From the NCBI GenBank assembly GCA_012295275.1, contig CM022673.1, forward strand, positions 20,584,001-20,648,000: 64,000 nt of DNA, read 5' to 3'. This document shows, piece by piece, positions 2,811 to 39,800 of the stretch; position 1 is the first letter of the stretch; the number at the start of each line of letters is the position of its first letter. The position numbers and the translations under genes are program-made. The stretch is from Chrysomallon squamiferum. Lineage: Eukaryota; Animalia; Mollusca. The notes under the pieces were generated by a model, which worked only from the letters and a program-made list of their open reading frames with translations, was not told where the DNA came from and did not search any database.

Positions 2811-3803
2811 AAAAAAAAAAAAAACCGAAGGACAGTGATTTACTGAATATTAATAATTGTTAGTAATAAAATGTTATTGATTTGTAACTGAACGATCAAT
2901 ATATATATAATGAAGATGAATGACATTCACGGTAATAAAGATTCTACTTGTCTGGTAAGGAAAAGTGAAACGACACAGAACAACACTACGAGTATCTCGT
3001 GGTGTTGTGTAAAAAAGTAGACAAGTTTCTTATTTGTTAAAACGAGATGTCAGTGCTCATAGTACCTGGATTTAATCCTTCTTCCTGTGCTTCACGGGCT
3101 TTAACTCATAGAATAAACAGTCCAAAGAATCTCAGTCCTGTTAATGTCGGGAAAAATAACTGTAAAATATCCCAAGTCGGCGGGTGGTATCGATCCCGCT
3201 ACTCATTACCCTTCACGAGGGCTCCACCCCATTGTGATACAGGCCATTTCGAAATACCAGTCACGTGTATATTTAATGATGACATACTGGTACTGCGGGG
3301 GCAGCATTCCACCCTGGCCACATCAAACAAAGGGGACAACAGGTAAGTTACTGGACAGTAGCCAGAATTTGCCCCTCGCCGATTTTCTGTTCTAGAATTA
3401 CAGATGTACATCCGATACCGTAATAGTTCAATACGGGTCCATATTTCCGAGAGGTGAAACAGAGTTTGAAGTCATCTGCCAAATTAGTCACATTCCTCTA
3501 AAGTTATTTATTTTACCTTCAGTTTATGTTTGTTTCCGAAAGCTTGAAGTAATTCGACTTCCCACCCCATTCCTGAGCTATTGGTAAAGAGGTAATTAAA
3601 ATTTATTTGGAATGTGTTTGTGTTTGACAGATATGTCTTGTGGATTGCTTTTGAAGATGTTTTTTCTTTGTGTCCAAGACTCCTTAGTGCTTTTTGTTTA
3701 TAATTTTAGAAATTGACTGGTTTTATTCTATTTTATTTTTAATTTTAATTTAAAAGGACAATTCAAAAGGACAATCTAAACAAAACTAAAAGATATATGT
3801 ATG

Positions 3804-22900: not shown

Positions 22901-24250
22901 TAAAGACATTAGAACATAATACATGTACATACTAATCTAGATTTTTTTGTTTAGCAGCTTTTGTTAATGTGAATAGAAAATAGAAACAGTAGAGAAAGCA
23001 CATTTTATGAAATAAATAACATTAAAAATTAGAAAAAGGAAATAAACAAATCATATTTCAAAGTAAATTAACTGAAAAATAATCAGACAAAAATAACCAT
23101 TCTAATTAATCACAATATACATCAGAATAGTAACTTGATTAATTATAGCCTTTGTTTCAAATAATTATTACATGTCAATTAAAAATAATAATAAAATGAA
23201 AAAAAAAAAAAGTGCATAAACAGATTTGCGTGGACAAAAAATAATAACAAATAATAGATAATAAAATATATGCTTATGGCTACAATTAAATAAACCAGAG
23301 TTTTAATAATAGCTATAACATACCAAATATACTGATGCCAAGCACAGGAACAATGCTCTTAATATTTAACATACACTAAGGGAGTGTAAGGATAATTGTT
23401 ACAATAAGGAACTTTAAAAATATTTGACTTAGTTACACAAATTACAAATAAAAGTGTACTTACTGAAATTAATTATAAAGTAAGGATTGGCAGTGATTTA
23501 CAATTATTTAAATTATGATTACAAATACTAAGTTAAATGTAGGATTTGTGTTAAGGTAGTGGATGGATAAAATGTTTGAGAAAAATATAAAACAAAAGCC
23601 AGGGAAATGCTGTTTTCAGAATATTTACCTACACAATGCATGGTGAAACTTTCATATAATTAACATTACAGTGAGGTTCGACAGATATTTAATTCAACTG
23701 TTTTATAAAAGTGATGACCTTTAACATTGTAGATTATAATGACTGGGTTGTCTTGGCATTTAGAGGGCTTGTACCTAAAAGACTGAGTCATCAAGGCATT
23801 CAGGGATATATACTCAAAAGACTGAGGCATACAATGTATTAGAGGACGTACTCGAAAGACTAAGCCATCAATAAACTGGCTATATTAGTAAGAGATAATG
23901 TGGACGTCGGTTTGGAGATTTTATTTTGATAAATGAATGCAATAACAAATGGATAAATAGCTGGCATATTATATTTTGTGGGGTGACTATTATGGATATT
24001 TTAAATCATGATTTGGCTACTTTCTCCTTTTAATGTCATGTTGTAGGATTTCCCATGTTCAAGTTTATGTTGTCTATGGCAAAGTGACATTGTCCATCAG
24101 TATATGTGGTAATGTTTTCTATGTGGTAGCTTAAGCAAAATTTTAACATCACCCAACGGTTCGAGTAGATCAACCTACCAACTGCAAATACAAAGATTCC
24201 TTTAAAGTTAAGCTACTGTAATATATACATAAACATATAAATATCATCAT

Positions 24251-24284
<34 letters not shown>

Positions 24285-24874
24285 GTATTGTTTTATAATT
24301 ATTAATATAAGTATATATCACTGGAGGCATAATTGTTTTTTTTATATATATGAATATTCTAATGGTCCAGGAATTTCATGTTCATAATATTGAATTTATT
24401 TATTGTTTATTTACACAACAGGAAGTTTTATATCTGCTTACCTGAATATTCAAAAGGTCCTTGATTTTAAAGTTTCATGTCTACTTTTATATATATATAT
24501 ATATCTATATACAAACACACACACATAAATGTATGGATGTATGTGCATGTGTCCATTTTGCCTGTATCAGAAATAACAGTTTCATTTTACAGACAACACT
24601 GAATATTCTATGTATATAAAAATTGTAACTCTCAAAATGTAAATGAATCTGTACAAATTGCTTTATACCTTGGTTCATTCCAGAGGTCTCTAATTCTGGT
24701 ACCTGGGCGTTGATGAACTTTTCTTTTTCCTCTGCTTTCCTCTTCGCCTCATTTCTCAAATCTTCAGCAGCCTTCTGCATGATGAGTTTCTGCAACAGGA
24801 AACAGCACAGACATTAATTCCCATGTAATGACCTTGCTTCAACTACAGCATATTTTTCTTTTCATTTTACATAA

Positions 24875-24947
<73 letters not shown>

Positions 24948-25527
24948 TTAAGACAAAGAATTTAATAAAATAAAAATTAATTCAGTCTCAAAATAAAAAA
25001 TATTATATCTTAAAAAACATGAACTTCATTTTCTGAAATTAATCAAATATTTATTCCAAATTAGAAATAATAATGATTATAACAGAACTTATTTAATAAA
25101 TTCAACAAACTCCATTCAGTTTTCACATTTTGTTTCATTATAAAAGTTATTTTTATAAAGGTTGGTTCTTATTTTAGAAACATGACTCAGAATATTTATT
25201 TCCATTATAAACTAACCCAACAGAAAAATTCACTTATTTATCAGTCCTTCTAAATTTTCAAACACATTAATTTTTCTATAATTTATTAGCAACCAATCAT
25301 CTATGGACACTAGCCTACATCATACACAGAATTACAGCTACTTGTCTTTTGTTCCATCCATGCCAATCCCTTCCATAAATAAGGCTTAATTTCTCCCCAA
25401 GTCAATAATTCAGATCATTAAAAAATATACATATATTTTTTTTTTTTATCTTATTTCAGTTTGTAAGAAAACAGGTTAACAAAAAAAAAAATCAATGTAA
25501 ATGTAATATAAACATACAAACAGTAAC

Positions 25528-25576
<49 letters not shown>

Positions 25577-27861
25577 GTGATAATAATAACAATCATACAC
25601 AATCCTAAGATATGTATCAAATTAATTTCCTACAGGCATATAAATAATGATTGAATGATAAAATAAAGTATTTTGTATAAAAAAAAGACCAGCGGATGAT
25701 TCATGTTTGTTAGAAATTTTTGTTTTGTTTTTTTCTTATTTAAAGAAAATACACAATGGTAAATAATTAAATAAAATAATTTCAAAAGATAAAAAAAACT
25801 ACTCATATATTAATAAGCCAGTATCCCAGTCTCAGTGTTGTAACATAAAAAGGTTTTATAAGAATAAAAAAAAATCAAATGTGTGTATAATATATAAATA
25901 TATTAATTGACAAATGAGTGAATAACCATGCCAACAAAAAGCCTCATAAAATTGCAAGTTAAAATTATTGCAAACAGAACATAATTCTGTTAATACAATC
26001 ACTAGATGTATTAATTAATGAATTAATTAATTATTCAAACAGCTCGTTATTAGTAAAGCAACCTTAATGAAAATTTCTCCTACCACAAAATAAAATATAA
26101 GTAACAAAATGGGCTACAAAAAAGTATTAAAAAGAACAAAAAAATTATTTTTGAAATAAACATGTTATTTTCCTGACTACAAGCTCTCAAAAGAGAAATT
26201 ATTTTAAATAAATAATGAGCCATGGCTTAATGTTTAAACAAACAAAAAAGATTATTTTAATTTTTTTATTATTATCATTACTATTTCAGTTACTGTTGCC
26301 ATTATGATTATTATTATTGCTGCAGTTATTATTATCATTAGACTATTTATTTATGACCTGACTTACTCTTTTTAACATTTTGATCTAATTTTGATTTTGA
26401 TAAGTGAGGGGCTGTTACTGGTACAGAATGGAGAAAGTTGGGGTTTCGATATACCTTAAGAAGCTTCTTCTTTTCAGGTGAAAGGCCACCCAGACCTTTC
26501 CTCTTTCCCTTCTTCTTCTTTGCTTCCTCCTCCTTCTTTCGGCGAGCTTCCTGGAGTGGGAGTCGAAGAGGAAGTTAAATACAGATGCATTATGGTAAAG
26601 GGGGGTTAAATAGCAGGCCAGTTGTTTCTCTTAATAAAATATAATTAAATACTCACACTTCCTTTGGTATTGCTGGTTTCAAACATCTATTTAATAGGAG
26701 CTTAAGGAAACAATATTATTACGCAACTGATATAATGAAAAAATAAATAAATATATTAAAAAAGATGTTTATGAAATTAATAAGAAATACAATTTATGGC
26801 TCCAACAGTCTTTTTTTTTTTTCTTTTTTTTTTTTTAACCCAGGTTTTGGTTATTGAACTGAAAAAAAGTTGTTGTTTTTTATATTAGCTATGTTTGTAT
26901 ATAAAAATGTATGTAAGCAATTTCTGAGCATTTTTTTTTTAATCTGACAGAGCTAGGTTTCAGTGCTTAAGAATGCAAGATGGCTGAACCAACTTTTTTG
27001 AAAGAAGCTGGTCACAATTAAAGCTTGAAAATTTGAAAATATAAAGAATTTTTAAATGTAGAAGAAAGGAGAATAAGACCTAAATAAATGTAGATAATTT
27101 TTGTTTTATATGCCAGGCCACAGAGGAAATAGTTTAAATGAAAGAGAGCATTTTAAAATCTTTTTTCTGTTTTCTTTATTCAGTAAAAGATTTAGATGTT
27201 ATTAGCACAAATATTAGTGTATTAGGCATCTAATCTACAAATGTGACAACATGAGAGTGTGTGAGCACATACTGACAGACAGACAGACGACAGGACAGCA
27301 GAGCCAAAGTGCAAGGTGTCAGACAATAAAAGGGGGACCCGTGACCAAAACACAGGCGAACGATTTTAGTAAACTGCAAAATAAATCATTTTAACATTAA
27401 AACTAAATTCATTTCCGCTCATTTCAGATAAAAAAAATTTTTTTAAAAAGGAAAAAAAAGTTGTAATTATTGATGAAAATATTTTACACCAGTTTACACC
27501 AGTTTTGTTTTTATTTTTATTGTTCTTTTTTGTCAAAATTAAATTATACCATTATTAAAATTGAAAATAAAATCGTATATATAAATTTCTGATGGGAATT
27601 TCTTTTTATGTAATTCTGAGCGAAAATAAATTCAATATTATGTTTGCAAGACAATGAACAAAACAACATGACCTGTTTAGCGGCAGGCAAGATTTGGCGA
27701 TTTACAGTTAGGTCTGGTTGCCAGCCATTGCTTCCAAAAGCTTTTCTGTATATTTATTAAGTTAATCTCTCCCAGGTATTTTAATCCTTTTATTCCGTTT
27801 GTTTTAATTTCAAAAAATATTATGGAACAATCTTAGTAAAAAATGACTGAGAAGTTATAAG

Positions 27862-27893
<32 letters not shown>

Positions 27894-30800
27894 AAACAGA
27901 AGAATTTATTGTAGGTTTCACTAGCTTTTCAAAAAAAAAAAAAAAGAAAAAAAAACAAACAAGAAATTTATAAATAGTATAAAGGACAACTTAATTCATC
28001 TTAATGGTATATTTAAATACTGAATTATAATGTAAAGTAATTTATTTTTCCTATTTAAAAATAGAAAAGACCATTTCAAACCTTTTCTCAATATAGTGTT
28101 AATTATGGCAATAAAATTTAAATAAAGAAGTTAGTAAAATGGTTTTTATAAAATAATAAATAGAGAAGCAATAGAATTTTTTTTTTTTTTTTTTTTTTTG
28201 TCTTAATGAAAAAAAAAAAAAAAAAAGAATAAAAAAAATGAAAAAAGATGAAGTTATTCAGCAGTTACATGACATCCACTGGATTTCTCTCTGCACCTCA
28301 AGTTTTTGTTTTCTTTATTTTCTTTTTTCCATTTTTTTCAATTTTTTTTTTTTTTTTTTTTCAATCTAAAAAGAAAGCTAGGCATGCCTATTTCTGATGA
28401 TGTATTGGAATTGCAGCTCTGTTTAGGATTATCAGTCCTTTTGGTCTGTACAAAGTCTTGTTTAAATTTACTAAACTGGTGTAGAAGAATGTGGCTGGCA
28501 AATAAAAGATTGTGATTCATGCCCTGACTGGTGGAAAATACAAAAAGAACAAAGTTACTTCCTGCATCTCAAGCCTGAAACCCTGCATTTCTGCCATTTA
28601 TTACTTGTCACATGATTGCTTTGTTTGCAAATTATTTCTATCATGAGACTTGCTTATGTCTTTTCAAAGAACATTTTGCTATAAATATTAAGGCTACTAA
28701 ATGGGGGGAAACTAAAGACAAAATATATTAAGTATAAGATTTGATTTTGGTGTTTCTGTTTCTTCTGTTGGGTTTTAAAAATTTCTTTTTAATAAAATAT
28801 TAGTTAATTTTAATCAGTTAACTAAACTTCAACTGGCTATCAATTACAGATTTATTTTTAAATAAAATATAAACAAATACCTATGGCTGTCTTTTTAAAA
28901 GTGTGATTCATGTTTGTGTTATGATTTTAAACCAGTTGTTAAATTTATTTTAAAAACAAAGATTTCTTATTTTAAGAAGCTTTAATAATTAAAAAAAAAA
29001 ACCATTAACTGCATTAATTTAATTTTGATACCCATTAAGACATATGAATTCTTATAATTAGATATTCTCTGGTAATACAATGGACTTTAATGGAAAATAT
29101 GCCAAAAGATATGGTTCTTAATGTATATATTAAACTTTAATTTACAAAATATTCTTAATCTGTTACAAATCTGTCAGAAAAGGGTTTTAAAGTTTTGCAG
29201 GGTTTTAAAAAAAGTACAAAAACTGAAAACATGAGCAAGTCTCATCTAACCCTGTTGCAAAAAACACAATGATGCAATTAGACTTACCTCCTCCTGTTCC
29301 TGGCGTTCTCGTTCTAATCTTTCCTCTTCCATTCTGGCTTCTTCTTCCTAAATACGAACAGATATATTAAATTTAACATCAAAACTTTACAGCTTTTGCT
29401 TACAAAACATCCCAACGTCTAATCTTAACTGACAAAGGAAATATCTCAGCAAATTAATCAATGAATGATTCTCTACAATACTTCGAAATATCCTGTCTTC
29501 TGCACTGATTGTTCTGAACAGTTCTGCTTTCAACACAGAGCTGTTTATTGTTTCAGCAGGAATGTTATTGTTAAAATGTGAATTCATAAAGAATATTTTA
29601 AAAATAATCCTCAAAATTTGTTGGTGTAAATTCCAAGTCTGAAAACTTAATGCTTTATTAATCAGCGCAGTAATATGTCATCTTGAACTAGATTTCTGTT
29701 CCTGTCATCATCATATTTACAGAATCCATTACATAAGATCAATATCTGAAAAATATCATTTCTAGATTTGAATTTTCAGTTTGCATAAAGTAAAACTGTG
29801 AAAATATAGCTATCTGATTTGTCAAAGCTGTGGAGGTCAGATGCAGATCTGACTAAAATTCTAATTATGTAATGTAACATGCTTATGATAAAATTCACTG
29901 AATAACTAAATATGTTAATCCTTCAATGTTTAAGATTGATTAAAAAAAATATATACATATATAAAGTTTAGACCCCCAGAGTTTGATAAGCATGTTCTTG
30001 CACTAATTCTTTGGAATATGTTTCATCAATAAAAAGAAAAATCTGGAAATATAGTAATTTCATAAACATTATTTTTTTAATTATAAATTTTTCACTTACC
30101 TGTTGTAAAGATGATTTTGGAATATGCTGACTGATATATCATGCAAATTTATTATTTAACTTTTTTTTTTTAAGGTTGATTTTGCACTGGCATGCATTAA
30201 TATTTACTGAAATGTATTAACATGCATCAATATGTGTTAATATTTACTGAAACTATTAATATTCAACAGTTTGTATTAATAGTTACTGACATGTATTAAT
30301 ATTTACTGAAATATATTACATGCATCAATATGTGTTAATATTTACTGAAACTATTAATATTCAACAGTTTGTATTAACAGTTACTGACATGTATTAATAT
30401 TTACTGACATATATTAACATGCATCAACAAGTATTAACATGCAAATCTTGAGAAAGACTGTTTATAAAACATTTGGTATATTTTTCACATGACCAGCTAA
30501 ACTAAAGTTAAAAACAAAATGTAACTGCTTCAGTCTTTACTGATACTGCACATTCTAAATAAATTAGTGTTTTTTAAAAATAACTCTGTAAATTTTATTA
30601 TCTTTAAAATGTAAATGAGAATGATAAGAAAATGAGAAATGTGCATTATGGCAAAAATACTAAATGGTATGAAAAACAGTATGTTCCAGAATAATAATAA
30701 TAAAAAGCCCAACAAACACTATTCACCATAAATAAATGGATGATATCAAAAATCTTTTTGAAAATAAATCACCATTAGCAGAATAATTTTAAAATGTGGC

Positions 30801-33800
30801 CAATTTAAATAAAAGTTATATATTTTTCAATTACATTATAATAATAATAATAAAAAATTATAATTAAAACAGTAAAAGCAAGATACAAACAATTCATGCA
30901 TTTATACCTATTTACATGTTTTTCAATGTCCTGAAATAAAAGAGTAGATATTTATGTTAAAAACTAATGATCTATTAAATATTTCTTCTGATATCTTGAA
31001 TATATTAAATGCATTTAACATTTATAAAAAGATCCCCAAAACCCACCAGGTATCCAATTGTAAAATAACTTTAAAGTAAAGCAGATACATTCAGAGGAAG
31101 ACTTACATTATCTGCGGTCAAACTTAAAGCAGCTGATGATGACAAACTTTGTGTGGATTTACTTAGTGTGGGTTGAGACCAAACAAGACCTTTGTCAATT
31201 TCCTCTTGAGTAGCATTCACTGCAAGTGAATTTATGTTAAGCACGTTGTCACAGTTGTTGCTTTTTACAACACAACACGATGAAGTCTTTAAGCATTGCA
31301 TTTCAGGACACTGATTATTGTTACTGTTTGTTTTGAAATTATAAAACGATGATGATCTTAATGCCGGTTTGCTACTCGTTTCAGAAATTGATGACTTTTC
31401 CTGAGTCGTGTTATCAGGAATAGATAATTCTAAGTTTTTACTTGTAACGAAACTCTCTGTTGCCAGTTTAAGCTTTCTGTTAAAGTTTGTGTTTCTGGTT
31501 TCAGCCATCTCAACACTTCTTCTGCCTGTTCCTACATCATTCTTAGAGTTTAATCTATTCTCAGCAGAGCCTTCACAGTGTCCTGATAAATGACTTTTGC
31601 TCACTGGTTCTTTTAAAAGTTTCTTTTGTAAACGAGGAATTTTACTTTGATTTGTTGTGTTTCTTAATTCAGAAGAAACATCATCTGATTCAAGTCTTCC
31701 AGAAATGTTTGTAAAGTATGTTGCTGAAGAAAACAAATGATTCTGCTTCTCTTGTGTGACTCTGTGGTTTAAAAAATCTTCATTTTGCAGTGGTTTTGTA
31801 TATTCTTGACAGTGCGACAACAAATGTTTGTGACTGTTCAGTGTTGAAGAATCACTTACTGAGGAAATGTTATCTGTATTTTTTAATTTTCCAATAATAC
31901 CCTTCACAAAAGAACCATGAGAAGGTATACATTTTTCTTGTTTTCTGTCATCTTCCTTGAACACTTCTGATTGGTGGTTTACTGTATCAAGCAAAACTTC
32001 ACATTTTGGAATTTGTAAATCCTTGTGTGTTTTTGAAGTTGTGGTAGATGGATTAGTCATGGCTGAATGATTCTCAGAATTAACATCTCTTTTGAATTTT
32101 GATATAATCTTTGGGATGAGTTTGCTAGAGTAAGCAGCACTTAGATTACTTTTTGAAGCTGGTTCACAAGATTCATTAAGTGGACTCTCAGTAGACTGCA
32201 TCCTAGGTGAGAAAAGTGAACTGTTTGATTTGAAGGATTCGGACATGAAAGGACTTGATGAAAAACTTTCACGCCTTGACTGACTCTCTTCAGAGAACTT
32301 TTTCTGTAGTTCTGAAATATCCAAACCTGATGATAATCTTCTAATCTGCATCCTCCTCTCAGTTTTAATACTTTCCAGTCTGGATGCCTCATTTTCCATT
32401 AAATCTTTAGTCAGCTGTTCAAATTTCTCCAACAAACTAGCAGTATAAGCATTCTTACTGGACATATTTTGAGAAGCAGAATCACTCTGAACTTGCAGTT
32501 TCTCAGATGTTAAAACACTGCTTAATTTTGGACATGATTTGGAATGTGTTAAGCTGCTTTCTGGTAATGGAGATGAAAGACATTTATTTTCATGCAAATA
32601 ATTTTGAGATACTTTGTTTTTTATTGGTTTCAAACAGTTTTTTTCGTTCCCTAATTCTAGATTGTAATCTGACTCTGATTGTATCTGCTTATCAGTGGAT
32701 GTCCTGGGTACTTCTTCTACAATATCAGCAACACTTTTAAGGTCATTATCATTAAATTTTTGCTTCTGCAATTCCAAAGGCTCAGTTATTTGTTTCCGAC
32801 TCAAAGAAGGATCTGATGATTTTCGACTATTAAATTTGACTGGTTTATTTTTCTGCGGGTTGCCATCATTTTGCAGATTACTGAAAAATCTGGATTTAAA
32901 ATCTGAAACTCTAGAACCAGAAAGTGATCTTCGTACTGGTTTTGTTTTAGCTGCAATTTGTTCAGCAGTTTCTGTAACCTCTTTTGACATAGATTCAAAT
33001 CTTTCTAATAAAGCAGTGTACTTTGACTGGGACTTGAAATTGTTTTCATCAACTTTTGGTTTATCTAATTCTAAGTGTAAACCTTGTTTGGTTTCAGTGA
33101 TTTGAAAGTTATTAATTTTAGGGTTATTTTCAACAATATATGTTGTGTTTACTTGATCTGTTTTGTCCTGTGAAACGTTCTTTCTAGTTAAATTACTATA
33201 ACTCAGCCTATGACTTAGTTTCTGTTCAATGTCTGCTTTAGATTTTACTGGTTGAAGCATTTTCACTTCATCTTTATGATTTAAATTCTTCCATAAAGAT
33301 TTGTTATTTCTGTTGAAACTGTCTTCTTTGAGCTGGCTGAAGTGTTTTCCACTGTCACCTGTTTCAACAGACACTGAGGCCAGATTATTTTCAATGGTGT
33401 CTTTACTTTTCTCACTTGTTGCTACATCTGCGTTAAAATTCTCAAATGTTTCAAAAACAGGGGTTATTTCTTCATGTTTGCTTGAAATGTTTGTTTGCAG
33501 TGCAAAATCATTTTTATACTTTTGCTTTAAGACATTATCTTGTTTCACTGTTAAAGACACATTTCCAGAAATCATGCTTAAATGTTTATCTGCTAAGGAC
33601 ACATTACAAGAAATCAAATGTTGGTCTTTTAAAGATATATTACCAGAAATCATGACACTTTCATAATCATCTTTTGTAAATTTTTCTTCTTTTGCCTCTT
33701 TGCTTGGAAATGATTTGTTAGAAAGTGATTTAATATTTTCTATCCTTTGCAACAAACTTGAATTTCCAACAATTGGCTGACTGCTAACAACTGGATGATC

Positions 33801-36800
33801 CTTTGTAATCTGATATATCTTGGAATCACTGACTTGCTTATCAGATTCAAAACTGCTGGTTTTCTGATGTGTCCATTTTTCAAATGGATCATCATCATCT
33901 AGACAATATTTCTCCCGAACTGTCAGTACCTTTTTATCAGTTCTTCTTTTAGGTTTCATTTCAGGTGAAACCGATCTCTTGCCTGCCACTTGGACTGCTT
34001 TCCCCACCTGCTGGACCTGGTCATTTAAAGTGCCCAGGAGCTGGTTTGAGTTGTGCCTTGCCCTGATAACTCCTACAAGTTCCTTCTGTCTTTGTTCACG
34101 CAAAAATTTCTCCTTTCTCACATGACTGAGAGTAGATGCATAATCATTGTTAGACTTTGGATCTCTTAATTCATCATCCATGCATATTGTGTTACCTCCT
34201 GATATATTTTCCATATTTTTAGTTGATGGAATAAACATTGACCTAGTTCTTAATAACCTGCGACTGCTACGTTCTGATGCAAAGTGTTGTGGTCTTCCCT
34301 AAACAAATATCAACACTATTGTTAAATCATTGTACAAAAATATTAGCAAGCAAAAATACAGAGAAAATAACTTTCTAGAAAAACAATTAACATATAAAAA
34401 TTGTTATGTCAATAAGAATTTTAAAATTAAAAAAAAAAAAGAATGAAACCTATTAGATAATACATAAAAATAAAATTTAATCTGTTAATTGCCTTATTAA
34501 ATATGAACAACAACTACACTCACACTATCTTCATGACTACTAATTCTTCTTTTCTCCAGAGAAACAAGACTGGATGGAGTCCAGTCAGTTTGTGTTACAT
34601 CAAGTTCTGGAACACTTCTACTGAAATGTTTCATAGTGGATAGTTCTGAAGGTAACAGTGAAGAGCTCTGATATGAAGAGATGGTCATTGATTTTTCTGA
34701 GCTCAAAGACAATGCTCTTGCTTTGTCTGAATAATGTGATGATCTGTTCAGACAGTCATTGTTCAGTGGAGACTGCCAAGGTTTAGCTGTTCTGTTTAAA
34801 ATCTGAATATAATGCTCTGAGGAATGGTCCTGAAGTCTGTCTAGTCTGCAGTCACTTCTGTAATAAGAAATATGATTGCACAAAGCTGGTGAGCTCTGTG
34901 TTTTCAAAAATGTATGACTTCTTTGACTTGCTCTGCTTCTGGAACTTTCTGTGTTAATACCAGATTCAGAAATGAAACTAGAATTAGGAGAAAAATCAGA
35001 AGAAGCAAGGACAGAATTTTCTGAGCTGTCCAAGCTGAATTTATGTTTCAAGTATGTGCTTATCTTTGGCACTGATGAATGCCTCTTTCTCTCAGTTTGC
35101 CATTGGTTTTGGTTTGAAATGGTGTCTGTGACATGACTGCTAAAGACTTCACTGTTACTGTTTTCATTTGAAGCTGGAAGAGAGCCACGATGTATTCTTA
35201 GCCAGAGTGGTAGATGTGATGGTTTCTGACTATCTGGTGATTCTGTTTTCTCAAGCCTATAACCAGGAGAAGAAAAAGATCTTCTTTGTTTTAGTGACTC
35301 CAGCTCAGTCTGTTGATGTTTCTTAAATTGTTTATCCCATAATTCACATTTTTCCAATTCATCAAAAGGAGGAAGGACCTTTCGACCAATCATCATGACT
35401 GATTTTTTAATTTCTTTTATTTCTTCTCTAGCATTGATATCCATTTTATTTTCAGCATGTCTTTCTGATAAAGCAGTAGAAGCAGAAGCTGATGTTTCAG
35501 TTCCTGTTATTGGAATGTAACCCAAAGAATCCAAATTTCCATATTTGTCTATATTTGACAAAGATGATGAAAAGGTTCTTGATATTAAATCAGTTATAGG
35601 ATTTTGAAATGGAACAGCATAAGCTTTGGTCATTAAATAGTTTGAAGTGTTCACCCTGTTTGGTTTTACTGGGACATTTTCCACCATTTTCTCTAAATAA
35701 GCTCCAGCAGAAGCTTTCAGAACAGTCTGGGCTTCATTATTGTATTTGTCTGCTGAACTTGGTCCTTTCTCTTCAACAAGTTGAGTTTTGTTATTAGGAA
35801 ATGAACATGGTTCATAAGCAGATGTCTGTTTTGAAGACAGATTACTCACACTGGACACTGAGGTCATGTACCTTGGAGATGACACAAACACTGAACTTTC
35901 TACTGGTTCTTGCATCTCTATTGTCTGCACTGAGAAACCTTTCCTTCTTGACTGGGTACCCAATGTAACAACTGCATTAGTATTTACTTGTTTTACATCA
36001 TCTGTTTTTCTTTGGATATAGGAATTATGTTCTATATGTTCACTGTTCTCTAATGTTGAATACGTATTTTTGTTTTCTTCAGAATTAAATATACAAGATG
36101 AATCTTCACTTGTAACATTTTCACCATCTCTGTCATTTTTTAACATCTTGCTACTTACTTCTGTTTCAGGATAATAAAACTGATTACACAATCTGCCACA
36201 GTCTGGAGATAAAATGTTACTTCTGACACTAACCACAGAAGTTTCCTCATCTCTCTGCTTAATTCCCACACTTGAGATATTCACTTCATTCATTACACAT
36301 CCAGAATCATTATTTTCTGTCTGTAGTTTTTCTGCTAGTTCACCATTTTTGTCTAAGGTGTCTTGTTTCTGCTGTTCTTCAATAGCTGCAAAATTTTTGA
36401 CACTGTCTGTGTCACTCACTTCATCCTCAATCTCTGTATTTTCATTTGTATCACATGTTCTTACTGAAACTGACAGAATTTCACTTCCAATGATGGATTC
36501 CAGGCTGGTTGCTGAGCCTTCACATTGTTGTGTTCTGCTGATCACTTCCAGAAGTGCATCATCATCCTCATCATCACCATCAGCAACAGATTCTTTTGTA
36601 TTCACAGAAAACTCTTCACTGTAACAAAAACTGCCATTGTTGTTGACCTCAAAGTTGCTTCCTACCTCTTCACTTTCAGTTGCTTCATTGATTGTTTCAA
36701 AATGATCTGCACAGTCCTGCCAAGGAATCTGTTCCCCAGAATAGCCACAGCATTCACACACTGATTTATTCTTAACATCATTTACCACATCATCAAACTG

Positions 36801-39800
36801 TCCTGGAGGATCAATGCAGTCAGCCTCTTCAGAACAGTCCTCATTGTTTGTAGCTGTACCGGCTGGGTTTTCTATCCAGATTGGAGTCACTTCAGCTACA
36901 GTTGAAGGTGAATCCAGAAAATCAATCTCAACATCCAGATAAACTCCATACTTCACAGAATAATCTTCATCATTCTTATGACCAGCAGGAGAAACATCTA
37001 GACATGTGTTATCAGAAAAGTCGGTTTCTTTCTTAAATATATTAAGTCCATCTTCTTCTTTTGCTGATGACAAGGAATTTGTGGTGTCTGAAGTATCAAA
37101 GTCATGACTGAGAAGGTGCTGCTGATGTTGCTTACTAACTGGAGGACAATCTAAACTGAAACAATCCATGTTAGGAAGACCAGCACATCTGTCACAGGCA
37201 TCAATTGTCTCAATACTTGAAGCTGTTTCAGAAGCATCATAATTAGCCACAAACAAACATGCTTCACTTTTCCAGCTGGACAGAGTTCCAACTTCTTGGT
37301 CATTAAAGTCTGAACCATCAAAGCTGTGACTTGAAGTCTTTAAACTATTTCCACCACTACAGTTAGATTCACACTGTTCCTCACAGGTTTGTAAAATCTT
37401 GTTCTTTATTTCAGCTTCATTTGCAAATAAAACAGAGCCATAATTTTGACACAGAATCTTTTCAATGCTCTGCAAATTTTGGTTATTTATTTTTGCATCA
37501 TTTTCTGACAAAACAGAGTTACTGTTTACCCCTTCATCTACAAATAAGACAGACTGAGGTAAATGAGATTCATCATTTTGCCTAGGAACCTGCTGCCCAG
37601 ATTCCCCTGTTTTACAATCTGATTCAGTTGAACAATCATTCAAATGACAGTCAGCATCCAGACTGTTGTAAAATGCTAGAGCAGCTTCATTGCTTTCAAC
37701 TTTTTTTCTTTTAATTTTGAAATAATATGATTTACTATCACCAGCCTTGTCATTTCCATACATAACATTATGCCATATTTCATCTGCTTCCTACAAATTG
37801 CATATCATGCAAATAAAAAAGGCAAAAAGGTATGTTAGTAATCCATGCAACAATTTTATAAAATAAAACCTATACAACAAACATGATAATTTAATTTCTT
37901 TAAATTTTAATATTATTATTATTATTATTGTTATTATTATTTTTTATTTTTTATTTTTTTTAAAGATATCTGATCATGGCAAGCAGAAAGCTGTAAATGT
38001 AAGCAATTGTTTTCATTTTAACTAATAATTAAAAAATAATTTATATTTGTTTTATACATATTCTCAAAAAATTTAAATGAAACATTTACTACTAATCCAC
38101 CAGAAGTGCCAAAATTCCACAATGACAGATATGAAAGTATACTTTGAAAATACTATACACTTGCTTCTTTATATCATGCATATTATAAATGTTCATGCAT
38201 ACAAGAACACTCTCCATGCATCCTTACCTTTCTGTTCTTTACAGAGAATCTGCTTTAAACTTATACTTTAAAAGCTTTTTTTAAAATGTACACACATTTT
38301 ATATACTTGTACTTTATCACTTACCTGGAAGATATGTAGTCTAGCCCATAAAAAAAAAAAAAATACATACTATCATAATACTTTATATAAATGTGTTTGT
38401 GTCTACATCCCACTGCACCTAGATGTTTAATATATTATGTGAACACACAAAATGTTTTATATCAACCACGTTTTGCACAGCATTCATCTTGTATCAGTCA
38501 AGAAACTAATAAAACATCAGATTGTGAAATGTTTTCATTCTTTCATTGCTGGATGTTTCAAATTCATTTATTCACCATACTTATTTTACCTACCTTGCGT
38601 TTTCTTTCTTCTTCCTCTCTCTTTGCTCGTTCTTCTTCCTCTCTCCGTCTCTGCTCAGCCTCCTGTCGTTTTCTCTCCTTCTCCTCCTCTCTGCGACGTT
38701 CTTCTTCTTCTTCCTCTTGTTGCTGCCGGCGACGCTCGGCTGCTTCTGCTGCTGCTGCTTCCTGGGCTGCTGTGTCGTCTGTTGATGGTTCCTAGCAAGG
38801 GTCAAAGGTCAAAAATGATTATAAAATAACCTAGTGTATGTTTTCAGATGTTTTGTTTATTTTTAATTATATATATAAAACAGTTATACAAAAAAAAGTA
38901 ATGGTAATAATTAAATCATAATTTAAATAAAATATTACTTTATTATTCCCATATTTATAATGATTATAAATGCTAATATCAGACTAAATAATTTGAACAA
39001 ATAAAAAAAAAACACTGAAAATAAACTGAAACAAGTTTGTCTGAATAAGTGAATAAAATTTTACAAAAAAGTAAGTAAATAAACTGAAGGTAAAAGATCA
39101 ATTCAGAGATATTACTTGTTTTTAAATTCTTAACTCAATTCAATGTTACATACAGAAAATAAATATCTGAAAGAGAGAATTTGAAAGGTAAAGAATGAGA
39201 TAAAGAAAGAATAGCAAAATAAGTAAACATTTTAAAGTATAAAGACAAATGTACACACTTTATGGGAAAATAATAAATTAACACCATTAATTTTCATCCT
39301 TTACAACATAATTGATAATCTTTTCTAACAATATACTCAAAAATAAAATTTGTTAAAAATAAGAAAAATTATCCTCTGAAATCTTAAAGAACCAATGAAA
39401 CATGAATTACAAAAACTAATGATTGTTTCACTTCTGTAGTTTATGTTGTTTCTATCATTCCAATATATTCAATCAAGTTAAATTAAATAATAATTTAAAA
39501 AATATGTAAAAACAAATAATTTTCATTATTATATTACTAAATTATTTTTTCATTCAATTTTAATTCTGTTTTCTTAAATTTTATTTATTTTTTTTCTGTA
39601 AGTCTACTACTATGTACTATTGTCTACAAAACAGTCAGTGGATAAGGTTCAGGTAATAGCAGTAAAAGACTGGCATAAACAGGAAATACAAAATAATCAA
39701 ATGGCTGCAATGCTAACTGGTTTTAAAACTAGGACAGGTGTTGAAAAGGAAACTGATTAACTAACACAAATAAGGTGATCACAGGACTGTGTATTTAAAT

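Follow-up and report, generated by a model that had tools for sequence, protein, structure and literature searches.

Troponin I (TnI) is regarded as a switch of 20–50 kDa, and the gene encoding it in the mollusc Chrysomallon squamiferum raises the question of what two stop-free frames of more than 3 kb do inside one of its introns. The stretch analysed here, referred to as the window, comprises 64,000 nt of contig CM022673.1 (assembly GCA_012295275.1, forward-strand positions 20,584,001 to 20,648,000); positions are counted from its first letter, and all exons given below lie on its minus strand. An initial annotation of this DNA, made from the sequence alone, had proposed that the two frames are cassette exons whose inclusion gives a giant TnI of about 2,544 aa. 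The two frames, termed A and B in this work, are indeed optional exons of the TnI transcript. On balance we lean towards the view that their inclusion adds a 2,153-residue disordered arm with a predicted weak grip on actin, which would tether or space thin filaments, and the pair is best read as an outsized form of a long-TnI cassette that is widespread among molluscs.

Two optional giant exons of the troponin I transcript

Exon A (37790-34524) has 3,267 nt, encodes 1,089 aa and lies in a stop-free frame of 1,097 codons (37790-34500), and exon B (34298-31107) has 3,192 nt, encodes 1,064 aa and lies in a stop-free frame of 1,075 codons (34298-31074). They are separated by a 225-nt GT..AG intron (34523-34299) that is removed in a contig of RNA run X1. 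AG acceptors stand directly 5' of A and B (at 37790 and 34298) and GTGAGT/GTAAGT donors directly 3' (at 34524 and 31107). Both lengths are multiples of three, and the flanking TnI exons are phase 0: upstream 38791-38594, which encodes a Glu/Arg-rich (E/R-rich) helical extension and supplies the donor of the skip junction, and downstream the 60-nt exon 29347-29288, which is placed by RNA junctions. Frames, acceptors, donors, lengths and phases had all been described in the initial annotation and were reproduced from the sequence. In 200 shuffles of 31107-37790 the longest stop-free frame had 184 codons (mean 104), and the remaining two frames of A and of B hold 60–146 stops each, so that a chance origin of both open frames is excluded.

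Four RNA runs, all from one study, were available for this locus. Their contigs, which show presence and never absence, were aligned to positions 24000-39300, and the runs contain 30–61% of the sampled words of 29000-38999. Two junctions of the TnI core were found in three of the four runs each. The skip junction 38594>29347 was seen in two runs (X1 and X2), the A-to-B junction 34524>34298 in one (X1), and in X1 B is also joined to exon 29347 by way of a 23-nt micro-exon (31107>30930 plus 30908>29347), which is the only exit from B observed. The introns removed by the skip, the A-to-B and the exit splices are all GT..AG, and X1 contigs extend along most of A and B. Because splicing from A to B, from B through the micro-exon to 29347, and straight across the pair have all been seen, A and B are optional exons that are either spliced in or skipped, and the cassette-exon claim of the initial annotation stands.

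The core of the host gene (26550-26455, 24789-24669, 22198-22098, 21214-21171, 18781-18740, 18501-18408 and 18042-17959) was recognised by a Pfam match, an open frame and the two RNA junctions mentioned above. Pfam Troponin (PF00992) is matched in exon 24789-24670 with 27.8 bits against a cut-off of 26.2 (E 3.5e-6), and the assembled core, a single open frame, is 66–77% identical to 17 mollusc-type TnI cores and to the metagenome rows L002 and L003. In a tree it falls among mollusc-type TnI, outside the supported heterobranch, mussel, cephalopod and limpet clades. A record named 'troponin' under Enterococcus faecium (P0009) is 77% identical to the window core, likely owing to animal contamination of that record. 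Further upstream, an open frame starting at ATG 52533 runs through predicted 5' coding exons (52533-52469, possibly 50369-50346, 45136-45056, 43242-43158, 41578-41531 and 39931-39899) that resemble mussel and octopus N-termini. The frame-preserving end of exon 45136-45056 is a GC donor; the 24-nt candidate 50369-50346 reads unlike other TnI N-termini, and further small exons may be missing from this part of the model. The skip form of 391 aa and the sum of 2,544 aa given in the initial annotation were both recovered, the former only with the doubtful 24-nt exon and a 5' model deduced from sequence. Outside the TnI gene, GC-richer pieces that look coding lie at 3019-3635 of the window.

Both giant exons are conserved in one relative. 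B has a single relative among 1.84 billion representatives (P0001, with its cluster mate P0002; 38% identity, E 1.7e-87), and A a single one among 7,982 scored candidates (P0003, with its mate P0005; 33% identity over 97%). The homologues and their cluster mates come from contigs of matching sizes, 15,214 and 16,907 nt, and we therefore infer that the homologues of A and B are neighbours in the relative. The alignments are collinear from end to end, with 8 blocks of at least 65% identity in B and 13 in A, and coding conservation reaches the end of B. Near the positions of the window donors both homologous frames read Val-Ser, as GTRAGT would be translated, and then run on into a short tail, so the relative apparently uses the same donors for A and B. 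The likeness of A to its relative starts upstream of Met10, the first Met of A, and a stop codon directly precedes A; both points favour entry into A by splicing. A was also tried as a duplicate of the B homologue, and this was rejected (E 0.37). Other searches found no counterpart of this size. B had no match among 7,973 scored proteins of 1,863–5,000 aa, which is weak evidence, and none of 481 pattern matches of a B profile in JGI contigs was confirmed; a TnI profile found 21 loci there (18 transcript-like and 3 genomic) with no frame of the size of A or B, the longest listed stretch being 407 codons. One TnI locus from another animal (L021:2054-6850) has long E/R-rich frames upstream of its core, and the two frames lying between these give the impression of a transposon origin.

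The two exons differ in composition. A is acidic and Cys-containing over its first ~600 aa, Ser-rich and predicted to be disordered; B is mildly basic and Ser/Lys-rich, and its predicted disorder is interrupted by helical islands at aa 53-105, 427-451 and 615-676. AlphaFold2 gave a mean predicted local distance difference test score of 35 for B (alignment of 3 sequences) and 30 for A (alignment of 2), values that fit disorder, although shallow alignments lower confidence too. Both models are mostly of low confidence, and the predicted helices coincide with conserved blocks. Neither A nor B nor their conserved blocks gave anything significant in Pfam, PDB-sequence or Atlas searches (best Atlas score 0.84, at most a lead), and comparison of A and B with troponin revealed no similarity.

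The micro-exon and the fate of the troponin core

What the giant exons do to the protein depends on how B is left. The micro-exon (30930-30908), both of whose junctions are in run X1, was absent from the initial description of the locus. Its AG acceptor is pyrimidine-rich and its donor is ordinary, with letters +1 to +6 identical to those of the donor of core exon 24789-24669. Since 23 is not a multiple of three, the frame shifts after the micro-exon, and the in-frame form of 2,544 aa (288 kDa) depends on skipping it. The arithmetic of the giant TnI in the initial annotation is thus correct if B is joined directly to 29347, whereas the sole observed exit shifts the frame and ends before the core. 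Of the junctions proposed there, 34524>34298 and the skip were seen. Neither the entry into A (38594>37790) nor the direct exit from B (31107>29347) was found in any of the four runs, whose contigs cannot show absence.

Several further points weigh against a giant TnI that keeps its core. By the micro-exon route a stop is reached 18 codons after B, inside exon 29347 (first base 29316) and upstream of the troponin core, giving a core-less product of 2,349 aa and 265 kDa. This stop sits 524 nt before the last junction, and a stop this far before the last junction is a classic decay signal. An alternative donor 8 nt earlier in the micro-exon would restore the frame, yet it is the sole one of 16 donors examined that lacks both -1G and +5G, and its use is unlikely. 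Differences between RNA and DNA within A and B, which may be alleles or RNA editing, number 5 synonymous and 10 non-synonymous (n = 15, p 0.63), a synonymous share as expected without constraint. One difference, at 33104, creates a stop in run X4 in a single contig of depth 2.8 and is possibly an error. The in-frame TnI of 2,544 aa is best described as plausible but unproven, requiring as it does the unseen junctions at either end.

Around these sites some smaller observations were made. Contigs of X1 and X3 end at 37678/37677 and none listed spans 37679-37790, a contig gap that proves nothing. In the intron before A there is a candidate 16-nt micro-exon (38340-38325) with a strong donor, which, combined with the AG at 37677-37676, would allow A to be entered in frame at a further site, 37675; this is speculative, and no such junction was seen among the contigs. 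A 2-nt deletion at 37610, in one contig of X3 with a depth below 4, is possibly an error. A 98-bp tandem repeat (30186-30427; 2.5 copies, 95% matches) lies in the intron just 3' of the micro-exon. The shifted frame of 29346-29332 reads KKPEW, like the true C-terminal exon of TnI, probably by chance in a purine-rich exon.

The strongest competing explanation, which we nevertheless consider unlikely, is that the micro-exon is obligatory after B and that the only long product is a protein of ~2,350 aa consisting of the N-terminal helical extension, A and B, a core-less scaffold that would tether actin. It takes the sole observed exit at face value, and in X1 the contig depths of that exit and of the skip junction are similar (7.4 and 6.6), although depth was not taken as a measure of expression because introns at 24.5-27.5 kb are as deep as the giant exons. 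The ordinary splice sites of the micro-exon and the coding conservation up to the end of B agree with this proposal as well. On the other hand, it relies on one contig of one run, and contigs drop rarer forms. The decay signal just mentioned would act against its mRNA, A and B keep lengths divisible by three and phase-0 ends, and in three other classes of molluscs the inserts at this site keep the core in frame, as described below.

A less probable possibility is that internal promoters are at work, so that A and B have an mRNA of their own starting from Met10 of A, or that the 3' end of B and the micro-exon form the leader of a short TnI, or both. In the latter case the frame shift would be irrelevant, because the end of B and the micro-exon would be untranslated. 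ATG 29332, which lies in exon 29347-29288 in the TnI frame, 16 nt ahead of the stop codon that ends the shifted giant frame, has a good context (A at -3, G at +4) and would start a predicted TnI of 208 aa and 24 kDa that resembles gastropod forms of 203–208 aa (P0025, P0015 and P0086). Such a short TnI could be another use of the junctions linking B, the micro-exon and 29347. Models from Mytilus and Liolophura (P0033, P0071 and P0077) start inside their inserts. In C. squamiferum and in the relative alike, a Met precedes the first conserved block of A. Yet A is spliced to B and X1 contigs run along most of both, the likeness to the relative begins upstream of Met10, and five upstream ATGs lie within about 230 nt of the proposed leader.

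Candidate actin-binding motifs and inserts in other molluscs

The case for a core-retaining giant TnI with an extended arm draws on other molluscs. One core exon served as the query of a search that covered proteins of 71–2,000 aa (Liolophura isoforms X1-X10 lay outside this scope) and gave 44 TnI matches among 55 candidates. Twenty-one of the 44 have at least 500 aa and come from five Mytilus species, two Octopus species and the chiton Liolophura. Once cluster members are added, 53 long models carry an insert of 236–759 aa between the same two E/R-rich helical exons, with the core in frame; the insert ends are heuristic, and models below 500 aa or without either anchor are not among the 53. 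A short Mytilus form joins the two helical stretches directly, without an insert. Examples of long models are XP_071120885.1, XP_036360316.1 and XP_064603850.1 (Mytilus, Octopus and Liolophura sinensis, respectively). Most of them bear names such as 'trichohyalin-like' or 'DNA ligase 1-like', and TNNI1 or Troponin I appears as the label of a few entries from Mytilus. In mussel and octopus, as in A plus B, the insert begins acidic and becomes basic. The look at other mollusc TnI genes that the initial annotation had proposed thus yields in-frame inserts at the same site, but none of the size of A or B among proteins of up to 2,000 aa and the JGI contigs. The models P0071, P0077, P0078 and P0058 differ elsewhere: those from M. 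galloprovincialis swap a core exon for an acidic one, and one from Octopus skips the Gly-Leu-Gly-Gly exon, which would represent more unreported splicing of molluscan TnI.

The inserts share a short motif with B. An earlier motif count had used a pattern picked after viewing B, and we rely instead on a held-out test and on published spacing. One insert each from mussel, octopus and chiton was searched for the best common 10-residue motif, with all window data left out, and the motif obtained outscored every one of 200 shuffles. In B it matches best at aa 660, with a score attained by 10 of 2,000 shuffles; in the relative the orthologous site is the one that matches best (130 of 2,000 shuffles), and no match was found in A. 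Its spacing fits that of the published SFM, VxxLxxxFE, a motif of disordered regions that is helical and binds F-actin at 13–89 uM, in the portion of the report available (bioRxiv 10.1101/2025.04.16.649135). The best SFM-like motif of B, ISELQKKFS (aa 661-669; 32318-32292), fits the motif common to the inserts, keeps 6 of 9 residues in the relative and belongs to a helix (661-676) in the model. The second, VSDFKSRFF (aa 464-472; 32909-32883), has 8 of 9 residues identical and is non-helical in the model; over all of B, residue identity to the relative is 36%. Sites with hydrophobic residues at P1 and P4 and Phe at P8 number three in B, four in its homologue, one to two in each of the other inserts and none in A, and their counts are reached by 210 of 2,000 shuffles for B, 19 for the homologue and 8 for Mytilus. 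The resemblance to an F-actin-binding motif makes the SFM-like sites a concrete candidate for the tether idea of the initial annotation.

We can thus outline how the arm might work. A would be entered from exon 38594, and a direct splice from B to 29347 would give a TnI of ~288 kDa that retains its core. The troponin complex would hold one end of such a protein, and the motifs of B might bind the same or a neighbouring filament. A disordered arm of up to about 0.8 um when fully stretched, holding actin weakly at several points, could then serve as a tether or spacer. The micro-exon would be a switch: its inclusion would lead to the core-less product of ~265 kDa or to a degraded mRNA, and would limit the amount of giant TnI.

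The motif evidence and the comparison with other molluscs also contain points that argue against this outline. The strict VxxLxxxFE has no match in the nine sequences scanned, which include A, B, their homologues and three inserts, and the relaxed counts in B are weak (reached by 210, 48 and, for a third pattern with one match, 1,157 of 2,000 shuffles). The gastropod matches named in the TnI search are all short forms, and the chiton insert has no acidic start. In 24 tests against local shuffles, the whole-sequence likeness of B to Mytilus inserts was borderline (3 and 2 of 100 shuffles), and no overall likeness was found between B and the Octopus or Liolophura inserts or between A and any insert.

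Another reading takes A and B as a passive spacer, which we regard as improbable, a shade more so than internal promoters. A and B would be coding, their conserved blocks would serve kinase sites or other partners, and the micro-exon would be a poison exon or noise. Such a reading is in keeping with the missing strict SFM match, with the empty family, structure and Atlas searches and with the lack of polymorphism-level constraint. The 13 conserved blocks of A, all of them without an SFM-like motif, also agree with it. Against this speaks the shared motif, which is prominent in three distant inserts and, at a conserved position, in B. Moreover, R/K-R-x-S/T sites show enrichment in the homologue of A alone (2 of 1,000 shuffles reach the count) and none in A or B themselves (158 and 207 of 1,000). 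Finally, a nested gene or a mobile element sitting in the TnI intron, which the initial annotation had named as readings that would overturn its own, is largely refuted and highly improbable: A and B do lack similarity to troponin, but they are spliced directly to TnI exons, show no transposase, reverse transcriptase or other domain in Pfam and no terminal repeats, and have just the one relative each in the searches given above.

Comparison with known systems

The new element here, which we take to be a real feature, is a pair of giant exons that a TnI transcript may include or skip. It stands at the far end of a range of molluscan long-TnI cassettes that are mostly unrecognised in databases. 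The initial annotation knew of no such exons, and a literature search, which left most subscription journals uncovered, found no paper on giant or long molluscan TnI isoforms or on this locus. The closest known forms are the long TnI models of Mytilus, Octopus and Liolophura, which have, like the window, an optional disordered insert between the same E/R-rich exons and share the L/I-x-x-I/L-Q-x-K-F motif. Their inserts are of ~240–760 aa and in frame, whereas the window has 2,153 aa in two exons of more than 3 kb; they are also database predictions and have no significant overall alignment to A or B. The insertion site is shared by gene models from bivalves, cephalopods and a chiton, which have been hidden under unrelated names. 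Giant exons of several kb, optional and encoding long disordered spacers, are familiar from ankyrins and titin-like proteins. Those belong to another gene family, and no sequence likeness to A or B was found.

As far as the accessible part of the SFM report goes, the motif occurs in caldesmon and is repeated in XIRP1/2 and SHROOM3 (bioRxiv 10.1101/2025.04.16.649135). These proteins have short helical motifs, with hydrophobic P1 and P4 and Phe at P8, repeated inside disorder, an arrangement predicted in part for B; B has no match to the strict consensus, and the word 'troponin' is absent from the main text of that report. The caldesmon family itself gave no Pfam match for A, B, their homologues or the long TnI models. 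A caldesmon-like protein was reportedly described by Bennett and Marston in 1990, judging by the title. The long mussel forms of TnI could be the disputed 'caldesmon-like' thin-filament protein of catch muscle. In the accessible part of a 2025 review of catch muscle, caldesmon is held to be absent 'despite some evidence', and the troponin section there has no long TnI isoform (PMC12040844); the part of PMC5963113 that was consulted adds nothing on the size of TnI isoforms. A long TnI that combines a charged helix with caldesmon-type motifs is a specific candidate that makes the old dispute testable. Tentatively, and with some doubt on our part, molluscs may broadly make long TnI with repeated F-actin motifs as a filament cross-linker, which here would reach ~290 kDa, with the micro-exon toggling between giant TnI and a core-less scaffold. 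If so, the calcium switch of the thin filament becomes a filament cross-linker as well.

Enlarged TnI is known from other animal groups. In the accessible portion of its report, sea-urchin HpTnI is a protein of ~52 kDa with a long N-terminal extension, and its unexpected size is blamed for past biochemical non-detection (PMC5341096). The extension occupies the same variable region of TnI as in the window, which adds a further 2,153 aa there and does so by alternative splicing. Troponin H of Lethocerus, according to the portion of the source available, is a heavy TnI of 70–80 kDa with a C-terminal Pro/Ala-rich extension that is tied to lattice order (PMC13322953). It is thus, like the window gene, a muscle TnI enlarged by a low-complexity extension, in this case one credited with the order of the filament lattice. 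The extension of troponin H is C-terminal and about a quarter of the size, while the insert described here is internal, Ser-rich, N-terminal to the core and furnished with candidate actin motifs. A product of 265–290 kDa from a TnI gene would be several times larger than troponin H, the largest described form found, and if its arm binds actin, molluscan thin filaments come with a tether of their own, one that has so far not been sought.

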